Below, piece by piece: positions 1,184 through 3,812 of a DNA stretch of 26,342 bases (position 1 is its first letter; each line of letters opens with the position of its first letter). The stretch covers positions 1 through 26,342 of IMG/VR virus record IMGVR_UViG_2850796239_000005. One strand, written 5' to 3'. The position numbers and the translations under genes were made by a program. Below the pieces are notes generated by a model. The model was not told the DNA's origin. It saw only the letters and a program-made list of their open reading frames with translations, and did no database searches. This DNA is from a virus (lineage: Duplodnaviria > Heunggongvirae > Uroviricota > Caudoviricetes).

Positions 1184-1840
1184 TTAAAATTCGAATTGTC
1201 TCGCCCGAAGGCTTTTCAGCATTGGTTTTGCCCGTTCGAAAAGGGCGCTTGCTTGGTCAAGTCGTGTCGCCTCCCTTAGCAGTACATCTCTGTTTTTCGT
1301 CACCGTGTAAAAAGTTTCAAACGCGATGTTATACAGCTTGCTCGTGTATGATGAGTTCAGTTCCTTCAATATCGGGTACAGACGTTTGCAGATGTCCTGC
1401 GCATTCTCCATCTGTACCTGCATATAGCAAAGGAGGATGATTTCTTCGTCTGTGAATTGCTGCTGGATCTGCGGGTGCTGTTCCGCTTTGCCCGGGCTGA
1501 AATAGCAGTCTTCCAGTTTTTCGAACACTTCCCACGCCTGATCGGTTTCGAGCATTTTTGCGTGGCGGGCTGCGCCTCGTTCTGTCCAGAGGATGAGGTG
1601 CTTTGCTCGCGGTGCAACTAAGTTACTGTGAGTAACCTTGTTCTTAAATTCCCGCAATTCACCACCCTCCAGTTTAAAGTAGTGCTTACCACAAACAAAA
1701 CGCCCGGCATTGCGCGTATAGTTCACTTTAATGTTGTTGGTCTCAGTGCCGTAAAGTCGTGCCAGTAGTTCGGTAGTGATGACGGGGATGTGGTTATAGG
1801 TAATTGGGGAAAGGGATTCAACAGAAATTTGAGTAGCCAT
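1184..1840 (-). CDS. ORF6N-domain phage protein (antirepressor-like), paralog 1
   Basis: Start placed at ATG 1840-1838 (MATQISVESLSPITY...), not the upstream extension in the ORF track, because the paralog at 2166-2948 begins MNTQISVETLSPITY. Shared motif HLILWTERGAARHAKMLETDQAW(E/D)VFEKLED. Family assignment is from pattern memory, not a search. Confidence 0.6.
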   Translation of the reverse strand: MATQISVESLSPITYNHIPVITTELLARLYGTETNNIKVNYTRNAGRFVCGKHYFKLEGGELREFKNKVTHSNLVAPRAKHLILWTERGAARHAKMLETDQAWEVFEKLEDCYFSPGKAEQHPQIQQQFTDEEIILLCYMQVQMENAQDICKRLYPILKELNSSYTSKLYNIAFETFYTVTKNRDVLLREATRLDQASALFERAKPMLKSLRARQFEF

Positions 1841-2165
1841 GGTTTTATGTCCTATCGCATATTTTGAATTCACCCCTTTTGAGAGGGTGGTCGGGCGCTC
1901 AAAACCGGCGATAGACGGCGGGCATATTTCCCTTGCGGGTGTTTTATTAGCCGCACGCCCGACCATTGAATTCTCAATGTCGTAGACATAAAAAAATCCG
2001 CATAACTGACGGGGCGGTTTCCGCTATCGCAAAGGTGTTTTGAGCACCATGAAGCGGAATATAGCCCCGTTAATGCGGTGTTGTCAAATCATGTAGGCCT
2101 TATCTTGCTGTAAGCCGCGCCATTCGGGCTTTTCCCCACATTTGGGGAAAACTATCTTGTCAAAA

Positions 2166-2948
2166 TCATGCAGCCTTTCGCTCTCCTTCGATGAGTTCCT
2201 CTATTTTGTGCACTCCAGCCTCGTTGTACCGAAATGTTTCAACCTGCTTGTCATTGTGCGCCGATTTGTCGATGAACCACTTCCCGTACTTTTCTGTTTT
2301 GAGCATGTAGGTGTTGGCTATGCGTCCTACCTTGTTGGCTGAAATACCGTAGCGCTGGCCGACTTCCGTAGCAGAGTAGTAGTGCTCTGAGATAGCTGGC
2401 AGAGGTACAACATCGCGACCAACAATCGGGTTGAACACTCCAGCTACTGCTGCCTGCTTTGATTCTGAGGACAGATTCGGGAACATATTCACCAGTCGAT
2501 CCGCCACGTTCAAAGCTATTTCCATGGCTCGCGCACGGTCTAGGCTACTTTCTGGTTGCGGTACTGGTTGAGGATGGTTGGCAACCTTTTCGCGCTGATT
2601 GAAGTAGCCGTCCTCCAGTTTTTCGAACACGTCCCATGCCTGATCGGTTTCGAGCATCTTCGCGTGACGGGCGGCTCCGCGCTCTGTCCAGAGGATGAGG
2701 TGGCGTGCATTTGGGGCAATTTTCACAAAGTAGTTTAAAGCTACTTTGTGTTTTAGCGCGCGCAGCTCGTCACCAACGACCTTGTAGAAGTGTACCCCCT
2801 CAACAAAGCGCGACTTGTTTTCATGATGGTTTTGCCGGATGCGCACAACATCCGTTCCGTACAACTGCGCCAATAATTCGCTGGTGATGACGTTGGTTTG
2901 TTTGTAGGTGATTGGTGAAAGTGTTTCGACAGAAATTTGAGTATTCAT
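2166..2948 (-). CDS. ORF6N-domain phage protein with antirepressor-like C-terminal domain, paralog 2
   Basis: ATG at 2948-2946 preceded by GAGGA. N-terminal about 130 aa is paralogous to 1184-1840. The extra C-terminal about 120 aa resembles antirepressor (KilA-C-like) domains. Confidence 0.6.
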   Translation of the reverse strand: MNTQISVETLSPITYKQTNVITSELLAQLYGTDVVRIRQNHHENKSRFVEGVHFYKVVGDELRALKHKVALNYFVKIAPNARHLILWTERGAARHAKMLETDQAWDVFEKLEDGYFNQREKVANHPQPVPQPESSLDRARAMEIALNVADRLVNMFPNLSSESKQAAVAGVFNPIVGRDVVPLPAISEHYYSATEVGQRYGISANKVGRIANTYMLKTEKYGKWFIDKSAHNDKQVETFRYNEAGVHKIEELIEGERKAA

Positions 2949-3089
2949 AGCGTCCTCACATTGGCTTTTGCATTGAAGAAAGCTTGACGGTGAACTCGCC
3001 GTAACGAGTTCAGATAAAAGAAATCCCGCGAGTGCGAGGATTGTTATTCATTGCCGATATTCACCTTTATCTCAAACACCTTTATCGGC

Positions 3090-3332
3090 TTATCTCCTTT
3101 GCATGGCACGTAATTTTTTCAGATGGTTCTCCTGCTCTGTTTCAGCCAGGATCTGGTGATATTCTCTGTGATCAATGTGTTCGAATAAATTATTGAATTT
3201 TCTGATGCACACCCTTCCAGGATAGCCATCCATCCTCTTGAAGAATACTGAGTGATCAGTACTACGAATGATTTTTACTGGATAGCCAGCGCTATCGGTG
3301 TATATCTGACCACGTTGAATCAGAGCGAACAT
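3090..3332 (-). CDS. Hypothetical small phage protein (80 aa)
   Basis: Intact ORF with ATG at 3332-3330 and adjacent purine-rich AAGGA. No recognisable family. Confidence 0.45.
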   Translation of the reverse strand: MFALIQRGQIYTDSAGYPVKIIRSTDHSVFFKRMDGYPGRVCIRKFNNLFEHIDHREYHQILAETEQENHLKKLRAMQRR

Positions 3333-3416
3333 TCCTTTATCTCCAGCGGCAAATCGAATACATCATCAGTGCCACCGCCAGTGCGGTTCCTACCTCTTTG
3401 AATGCTTCAGGCCAGG

Positions 3417-3812
3417 TCATTGATTCACCTCCCGCTCAATATTTTTAAGGTCATTCTCCGCATACAGTATCGCTGTCCTGGCTGCTCGCAACCGCGCTTT
3501 GGCGTTTTTCTCTTCACGTTCAAGTTTTGCCACAGCTTCTCGAAGAGCGTCCCGCTTTGCATAAAGTGATTTAATCTCAGACACGATGTTTTCGCCGTTT
3601 CTCGCGCGGTCGAGAACAAGTTCGAATGGATCTAAAGCCAATCCGCATCGGTTGCAGGTAATCGTACGATTCACTTCTGAAATTGTTGTACGGATATGCT
3701 GACAGCATTTTTGCTCGACGCTTTTTCTGTCGGTTATCACAACGTTGAGAAGTCCTTCCTCCTCTGATTTTGGCTGCACCAGGGTGATAACATTATCGCT
3801 GTTATCGTCCAT
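3417..3812 (-). CDS. Hypothetical phage protein with Cys-rich zinc-ribbon-like motif and coiled-coil C-terminus (131 aa)
   Basis: Start chosen at ATG 3812-3810 (MDDNSDNVITL...) because AGGAGG lies 7 nt upstream. The track's upstream extension to 3878 runs into IS2-derived sequence. This ATG overlaps the reconstructed original stop of the IS2-disrupted gene at 6442-7389. Confidence 0.5.
   Translation of the reverse strand: MDDNSDNVITLVQPKSEEEGLLNVVITDRKSVEQKCCQHIRTTISEVNRTITCNRCGLALDPFELVLDRARNGENIVSEIKSLYAKRDALREAVAKLEREEKNAKARLRAARTAILYAENDLKNIEREVNQ

Follow-up and report, generated by a model that had tools for sequence, protein, structure and literature searches.

An sRNA-Xcc1-class RNA as the probable c4-like gate of one of two neighbouring ORF6N genes in a lambdoid prophage

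Two adjacent, co-oriented genes near the integrase end of a prophage encode proteins that begin alike and end differently, and the locus raises the question of how such a pair arose and how each member is controlled. The genes lie in IMG/VR virus record IMGVR_UViG_2850796239_000005, a Caudoviricetes sequence of 26,342 nucleotides (nt) that was analysed whole and is called the window below. The window covers the left arm of a lambdoid prophage together with its immunity region, and is read leftward on the minus strand. We refer to the gene nearer xis as gene 1 and to the other as gene 2 (Table 1). The initial annotation had recognized both open reading frames (ORFs), which are real and lie on the minus strand, and had placed them correctly in an int/xis-proximal accessory region. 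It overlooked the 325-nt gap between them, where a promoter, a leader and a c4-type antisense RNA are found. We think it probable, with moderate confidence, that gene 1 is silenced by an Xcc1-class RNA akin to the c4 RNA of phage P1, that gene 2 beside it is ungated, and that the gene 1 protein inactivates a CI-type repressor.

The RNA in the gap matches the Rfam family of the small RNA (sRNA) Xcc1 over model positions 1-87 of 87, at 78.1 bits against a gathering threshold of 53 (E 6e-13), and scores 101.5 bits with a covariance model of our own. Aligned with MAFFT and folded with RNAalifold, ten Xcc1-type RNAs yielded a consensus of low quality (12 pairs, -7.7 kcal/mol), as that alignment took no account of structure; it was therefore replaced by covariance-model realignment. 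Among the 10 distinct sequences so realigned, 83% of the cells were paired, compared with 32-44% when partners were slid. Eight pairs have changed on both sides, and the covariation score was reached by none of 500 shuffles.

Two segments of this RNA, a' and b', carry the recognition sequences. The boxes a2 and b2, between the RNA and the gene 1 start codon, are their exact 7-nt complements, and b2 reaches into the Shine-Dalgarno (SD) sequence. A second pair of exact complements, a1 and b1, lies upstream in the leader and changes along with a' and b' in relatives. In six aligned homologous leaders b', b1 and b2 change together, giving four types. The set was extended to Nil2, P13374, POCJ13, F451, RMDEC465, IMG/VR prophages and an Acinetobacter phage, and yielded eight b' and at least four a' specificities, each accompanied by corresponding boxes on both sides. 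The overlap of b2 with the SD is 1-3 nt in 10 of 11 Xcc1-type modules, the Acinetobacter phage included. Across 18 non-redundant modules the mean longest exact complement was greater for cognate than for non-cognate pairs at b2 (6.8 vs 4.6), at a2 (6.9 vs 4.4) and in the leader (7.5 vs 5.5), and the cognate complementarity sum was reached by 0 of 20000 permutations. On this sequence evidence, the Xcc1-type RNA and gene 1 are a predicted regulator and its target.

Recent papers on sRNA-Xcc1 homologues, from Xanthomonas and Xylella, regard them as trans-acting, virulence-related sRNAs. Applied to the window, this would mean that the RNA at 1881-1964 acts on host genes and stands beside gene 1 incidentally. 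Host targets cannot explain the sites, because these co-vary through eight specificities, and the exposed segments match the RNA's own leader and its own gene's SD. The RNA is also found upstream of an ORF6N or KilA-N gene in phages of E. coli, Shigella and Acinetobacter and in APSE phages; one APSE phage paper mentions an sRNA-Xcc1 copy upstream of an ORF6N gene and offers no interpretation. We consider a purely host-directed role very unlikely, while trans targets are possible as an additional role. In Acinetobacter phage 4316 (L086, 1806-2783) an Xcc1-type RNA 82% identical to that of the window lies upstream of a KilA-N gene and obeys the same box rule, with b' CUUCGU and ACGAAG at the SD.

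The promoter of the cassette is the sole promoter-like site in 900-4000. Its -35 and -10 elements are kept in Nil2, F451, P13374, POCJ13 and RMDEC465, and the homologous site carries a promoter annotation in the phage Nil2 record. No LexA box (CTGT-N8-ACAG) was seen on reading the promoter region. In the leader that follows, the hairpin stem covaries (CCGC/GCGG vs CCAAC/GTTGG) and the T-run is conserved. Since gene 1 has its own promoter and its own terminator, it is an autonomous transcription unit. Its start lies 40 nt after the RNA. An ORF finder gave a 260-aa version (1184-1966), which extends across the structured RNA and was rejected, and database cluster P0121 has the same length and likewise runs over the RNA. 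For an E. coli genome, RefSeq gives the 657-nt (218-aa) version of the gene and has no feature across the RNA. The 5' extension by which some gene callers lengthen gene 1 to 260 aa is an artefact.

Table 1. Features of the gene 1 cassette, of gene 2 and of the surrounding prophage region.
Feature	Position	Strand	Details
c4-type antisense RNA, sRNA-Xcc1 class	1881-1964	-	84 nt; Rfam RF02221
Segment b'	1916-1908	-	GUCUAUCGC; loop of hairpin 2; CUAUCGC core
Segment a'	1904-1898	-	UUUUGAG; 3' junction
Gene 1 mRNA target region	1841-1889	-	small hairpin CACCC 1889-1885 / GGGGTG 1876-1871; ATG 1840
Box a2	1883-1877	-	CUCAAAA; in loop of target-region hairpin, just after the RNA
Box b2	1858-1852	-	GCGAUAG; overlaps Shine-Dalgarno AGGA (1853-1850) by 2 nt
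Gene 1	1184-1840	-	218 aa; ORF6N + P22 Ant C-terminal domain; putative RNA-gated antirepressor; PF10543, PF10548, phrog_377
Promoter, sigma-70 type	2058-2087	-	TTGACA / 18 nt / TATATT; 11/12 consensus matches
Leader	1990-2051	-	about 60 nt; boxes a1/b1, weak hairpin, T7 run; positional analogue of IsrK/c4-a1b1
Box a1	2045-2037	-	GCTCAAAAC; small hairpin loop; CUCAAAA core 2044-2038
Box b1	2030-2024	-	GCGATAG; in leader
Leader hairpin, weak	2017-2014 / 2001-1998	-	CCGC / GCGG; then T7 run 1996-1990
Intrinsic terminator	1159-1178	-	strong; 8-bp stem, 4 G-C pairs, GCTTCGGC-type loop, T-run; upstream of xis
Gene 2	2166-2948	-	260 aa; ORF6N + helical linker + MerR/excisionase-like winged helix-turn-helix (predicted); PF10543, phrog_1726, AF2 model
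Second, classical c4-type module	10181-10801	-	isrK 10725-10801, C4 10613-10700, Rha-family gene 10181-10558
int	1-903	-	prophage left end
xis	881-1099	-	PF07825, E 4e-41
IS2 + IS3-family element	about 3852-6260		right of the four genes under study
DUF4222 protein	3090-3332	-	80 aa; PF13973, E 3e-15; phrog_285 (unknown function)
131-aa protein	3417-3812	-	CCxH...CxxC motif + C-terminal coiled coil; phrog_1621 (unknown function), E 2e-48

Profile searches showed what the gated gene and its neighbour have in common. Both proteins match Pfam ORF6N over profile positions 3-86 of 86, far above the curated gathering cut-off of 27.8 bits (gene 1, 72.7 bits, E 3e-20; gene 2, 71.5 bits, E 7e-20), so the shared N-terminal module that the initial annotation had named is genuine. 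BLASTP aligned residues 1-127 at 63% identity (E 4e-52) and gave no significant similarity beyond residue 127, where the C-termini are unrelated. The motif HLILWTERGAARHAKMLETDQAW.VFEKLED is common to both genes and is encoded by DNA that is 88% identical over 103 nt. Of the other domains named for the profile search, KilA-C/ANT (PF03374) and Bro-N (PF02498) matched neither protein at E<=0.1. The antirepressor-like extension, which had been assigned to the second gene, belongs to the first: gene 1 matches the P22 antirepressor C-terminal domain (P22_AR_C) at 39.4 bits against a cut-off of 22.4 (E 7e-10), and BLASTP aligned it to P22 Ant residues 214-272 at 27% identity (E 2e-7). Gene 2 shows no similarity to P22 Ant and does not reach the PF10548 cut-off. 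Both do belong to antirepressor-type families, as had been thought, with full-length matches of gene 1 to phrog_377 'anti-repressor Ant' (E 2.5e-75) and of gene 2 to phrog_1726 'anti-repressor' (E 8e-92). Relatives of gene 1 number more than 5000, mostly in E. coli prophages. PDB sequence searches returned nothing for either protein, and NCBIfam nothing meaningful.

Residues 121-260 of gene 2 contain no Pfam domain. A search with this C-terminal part found 244 proteins carrying the same module after an ORF6N, Bro-N, Rha, AntA or unrecognized N-domain. The AlphaFold (AF2) model, with a mean predicted local distance difference test (pLDDT) of 79, shows a helical linker followed by a helix-turn-helix, a β-hairpin and a helix. 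Over a stretch of 57-70 residues, the best PDB folds found by Foldseek were BldC, RacA and NmlR of the MerR family, Tn916 Xis and RdfS, with probabilities up to 0.98 and weak E-values of 0.2-2. Among predicted viral structures, the matches were named KilA-N, KilAC, antirepressor or regulatory proteins. The predicted MerR/Xis-like assignment is based on the high match probabilities, the order of secondary structure elements and weak HTH_17 matches in homologues.

The same domains bear on how the pair came about. The initial annotation had proposed a local duplication followed by C-terminal divergence. In situ tandem duplication of one ORF6N gene would account for adjacent, co-oriented genes that are 63% identical over 127 aa, and for the 88%-identical 103-nt DNA patch. 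It is refuted by a tree built from 40 distinct ORF6N domains of related loci, in which the gene 1 and gene 2 domains do not group together. At other loci the gene 1 domain has relatives with 91-92% identity, and the nearest relative of the gene 2 domain is at 80% (73% among deposited phages), whereas their mutual identity is 63-69%. The C-termini are unrelated modules that occur elsewhere on Bro-N, Rha, AntA and unknown N-domains. Comparison of neighbourhoods in related prophages, which had been recommended, revealed the same shuffling of N-domains and C-termini: in the sister loci L003, L007, L014 and L087 the upstream gene has a gene 2-type C-terminus with a different N-domain, and in E. coli RMDEC465 the gene 1 C-terminus is retained (95%), whereas the ORF6N domain is of a different lineage and the RNA of a different specificity. 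Two ORF6N genes lie within 2.5 kb of each other in only 6 of 86 related loci, and the regulatory contexts of gene 1 and gene 2 differ. We regard duplication as highly improbable. Because each ORF6N domain has closer relatives elsewhere, the two genes are best read as independent antirepressor-type cassettes placed side by side by recombination, and nothing about the tandem ORF6N arrangement is unusual for a protein supergroup whose domains and cassettes are typically shuffled. Directly after the gene 2 stop, at 2130-2151, stands a perfect 9-bp palindromic hairpin (TTTTCCCCA...TGGGGAAAA) that has no T-run on the minus strand; it may mark the boundary between the two cassettes.

A predicted RNA gate is a regular companion of gene 1 relatives. 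All 20 of the relatives scanned have either isrK(c4-a1b1) plus C4 or sRNA-Xcc1 directly upstream, and a c4-type RNA is also visible in all 35 distinct upstream regions. Gene 2 has no c4-type RNA upstream, with no Rfam match in 2949-3089 at E<=1. The window contains a second, classical c4-type module, whose Rha-family gene matches PF09669 (E 9e-27). The two window RNAs are orthogonal, each matching its own gene only. Complementarity of either RNA to gene 2, the DUF4222 gene, the 131-aa gene and xis is at chance level, and it is implausible that either targets gene 2.

The a and b boxes of the second module match its own leader and ribosome-binding site, and a mechanically called 178-aa ORF there (10181-10717) extends over the C4 RNA. 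Tandem modules are common: Nil2 has C4-antA and then Xcc1-antB, L032 has C4, Xcc1 and Xcc1, and F451 has two Xcc1. Arrays of two to three consecutive RNA-antirepressor modules are seen at L032 1686-4059, L002 1493-3425 and L003 3629-4914. In related prophages the arrays alternate C4 and Xcc1 classes, with a different specificity in each module.

Transcription of the gene 1 cassette would produce, in order, a short leader with the decoy boxes a1/b1 and the T-run, the ~84-nt Xcc1-class RNA and the antirepressor (ant) mRNA. The released RNA would pair through a' with a2 in the hairpin loop and through b' with b2 at its overlap with the SD. This pairing would block translation, so that the gene 1 protein would be absent in the lysogen. 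The leader boxes would bind the same RNA, with two possible outcomes: they may promote early termination as feedback, or the short terminated RNA may titrate the repressor RNA and turn the gene on, as IsrK does in Gifsy-1. Once made, the gene 1 protein would bind and inactivate a CI-type repressor, that of its own or of a co-resident prophage, and promote induction. Gene 2, without an RNA gate, most likely forms part of the early-left transcript, here interrupted by IS2 and the IS3-family element.

A different function for the proteins was also weighed. ORF6N proteins could be toxic or defence effectors, or Bro/KilA-like DNA-binding regulators, with the c4-type RNA acting like an antitoxin that holds back a harmful gene until a phage infects or stress sets in. 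PADLOC gave partial matches to PDC-S05 for gene 1 (E 3e-8) and gene 2 (E 1e-6), but these are weak, confined to the shared ORF6N region and directed to candidate defence families. The C-terminal domain of gene 1 is that of P22 Ant, an antirepressor defined by experiment, and induction-dependent late expression falls when the phi24B homologue of this domain is lost. In Gifsy-1, growth arrest has been attributed to AntQ, which is induced downstream of AnrP, not to AnrP itself. An effector or antitoxin-like system is therefore unlikely in our judgement, and repressor inactivation is the preferred role for the gene 1 protein.

The closest precedent for the gene 1 cassette is the immI module of P1/P7, reportedly composed of c4 antisense RNA, icd and ant1/ant2 and said to go back to Citron and Schuster in 1990 and Biere et al. 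in 1992. In P1, c4 RNA is released from the primary transcript by RNase P. The P1/P7 c4 RNA blocks the ribosome-binding region ahead of ant (PMC12197685). As in immI, the predicted repressor RNA of the window shares a transcript with its target and precedes an antirepressor-type gene; its a' and b' have complementary copies upstream (a1, b1) and downstream (a2, b2), the latter at the ribosome-binding site. The recognition segments likewise vary among relatives and the targets change to match, which is the basis of heteroimmunity. Unlike P1/P7 c4, the window RNA belongs to sRNA-Xcc1, a family whose fold combines a three-way junction and a nested first hairpin, and the regulated protein is ORF6N + P22_AR_C, not P1 Ant, in a lambdoid prophage.

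The second precedent is the Salmonella prophage Gifsy-1, with the order isrK - STnc1160/orf45 - anrP. There, a read-through transcript starting at the isrK promoter goes untranslated, processing of the stretch beyond IsrK yields an ~80-nt RNA, and the short IsrK RNA pairs with the downstream region, turning on the antirepressor-like AnrP and prophage induction (PMC4825925). The gene 1 cassette is predicted to share the order of promoter, short leader, downstream ~80-nt-type RNA complementary to that leader, and antirepressor-like gene, while a true copy of the isrK locus type is the second module of the window. Unlike Gifsy-1, the leader and RNA of the int-proximal cassette are unrecognized by Rfam isrK and C4, the leader terminator hairpin is weaker, and an orf45-like ORF is not needed for access to the ATG, b2 being directly on the SD.

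Other phages share parts of the arrangement. The antA/antB genes of the Shiga toxin (Stx) phages Nil2 and 2851 and the antirepressor pairs of Stx2a_F451 include a homologous cassette, with DNA identity of 79-81% that starts at the promoter and extends into the ORF6N coding sequence. In these the cassette also directly follows another antirepressor-type gene, and in Nil2 both genes are ORF6N. The Nil2 pair differs in lying in the nin region, in an upstream antA with its own isrK+C4 where gene 2 has none, and in its b' specificity (CTACTTG vs CTATCGC); the Nil2 record treats the two as a single ant gene interrupted by an insertion. The phi24B Ant, which has the P22 Ant C-terminal domain in common with gene 1, is needed for full late-promoter activity after induction (PMC3064807). 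P22 itself resembles the window in this domain and in holding ant off post-transcriptionally by a small antisense RNA, as predicted for gene 1. However, P22 sar is a cis-antisense transcript from the opposite strand, arc and mnt genes are absent here, and the N-terminal domain is ORF6N rather than P22_AR_N.

Several points weigh against c4-like silencing of gene 1 and against its proposed effect on a repressor. Sequence alone is the basis for predicting the RNA, its processing and the translational block, and the complementary boxes are just 7-9 nt long. Rfam C4 (RF01695, clan CL00128) has no match at 1841-2165 even at E<=1, in a scan that detects the true C4 at 10613-10700, and Rfam lists sRNA-Xcc1 without a clan. 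Nor does the leader match Rfam isrK (RF01394) or c4-a1b1 (RF03163) in 1965-2100 at E<=1, so that its resemblance to them is one of layout only (a1/b1, hairpin, T-run). Its weak hairpin (4 bp) was missed by the terminator scan because the stem has fewer than five pairs. In a further departure from immI there is no icd-like ORF coupled to ant, and no ORF in the 40 nt between RNA and ATG. RNAduplex energies, computed for a 30-60-nt sRNA core against 60-95-nt targets, failed to separate cognate from non-cognate pairs; long G+C-rich stems dominate such energies, and they were replaced by the longest exact complement and permutation given above. On the protein side, the similarity of gene 1 to P22 Ant is confined to ~60 residues at 27% identity, the AF2 model of this domain is of low confidence (pLDDT ~50), and searchable papers report no ORF6N protein shown to bind a repressor. 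The gene 1 module may also have lost its cognate function in this prophage, since cI is frameshifted and int truncated.

The c4 principle and the association of C4 RNAs with antirepressor genes are already known, and the gene 1 cassette is an ordinary type of phage switch in a little-recognized RNA variant. No link between sRNA-Xcc1 and c4 was found in the searchable literature, which is incomplete, and earlier recognition is possible. A wider joint reading is tentative, and we think it somewhat more likely to fail than to hold. The whole RF02221 family, Xanthomonas and Xylella copies included, might constitute a second class of c4-type immunity RNA, structurally distinct from the first, in phages and other mobile elements. 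Through its a'/b' boxes each copy would gate a KilA-N-, ORF6N- or Bro-type gene, and a decoy leader would oppose it. Their specificities would be orthogonal and often arranged in tandem (C4, Xcc1, Xcc1), making them addressable, independent antirepressor switches. If so, co-resident prophages, even defective ones, could induce or sense one another. Antirepressors set the lytic switch of prophages, Shiga-toxin phages included, without RecA-mediated repressor cleavage, which gives such gates a bearing on toxin release and prophage cross-talk. ORF6N genes annotated as 'hypothetical' or 'antirepressor' in thousands of E. coli and Shigella prophages would have a predictable RNA gate, and an Rfam family read as a host-directed sRNA would gain a simple cis-linked function with built-in specificity boxes.

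The closest complete-genome arrangement to 900-3900 is that of E. coli RMDEC465; no complete E. coli genome in the collection has at least 80% of it. The nearest named protein cluster is from Shigella flexneri, and the IMG/VR loci L006 and L008 have an identical gene 1 and a near-identical gene 2. Rightward of the insertion sequence (IS) elements, the window encodes Ea22/DUF551, a YqaJ exonuclease, RecT, the Rha-family gene, hicAB, a cI-type repressor and cro. The prophage is now degenerate. Its int product shares 71% identity with a full-length 356-aa relative as far as residue ~282, beyond which it diverges, ending at 300 without the C-terminal catalytic part. Its cI is split by a frameshift into a 64-aa helix-turn-helix piece (13023-13217) and a 188-aa S24-peptidase piece (12460-13026) on the minus strand, with a 4-nt overlap, and the prophage therefore probably has no functional repressor. 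Between the Rha module and cI lies a hicA/hicB toxin-antitoxin pair on the plus strand (11460-12055; PF07927, E 1e-11; PF05534, E 7e-20).

The two IS elements stand between the four-gene region and the early-left operon. The IS3-family element, in which an ALIL frameshift pseudoknot lies at 5330-5446 (116 bits), appears to interrupt the IS2 upstream ORF. At ~3852, about 40 nt upstream of the 131-aa gene, the IS2 terminal sequence comes to its end. That gene, described initially as a Cys-containing coiled-coil ORF, is real: it starts at ATG 3812 behind an AGGAGG ribosome-binding site, and its phrog_1621 match spans the whole profile. An alternative ATG at 3878 lies inside IS2 and was rejected as its start. 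The 80-aa ORF noted beside it is also real and encodes the DUF4222 protein, whose gene has an equivalent position in E. coli RMDEC465. Between the two, a 27-codon hydrophobic ORF (MTWPEAFKEVGTALAVALMMYSICRWR, 3338-3420, minus strand) shares an ATGA overlap with the stop of the 131-aa gene and may be a small membrane peptide gene.

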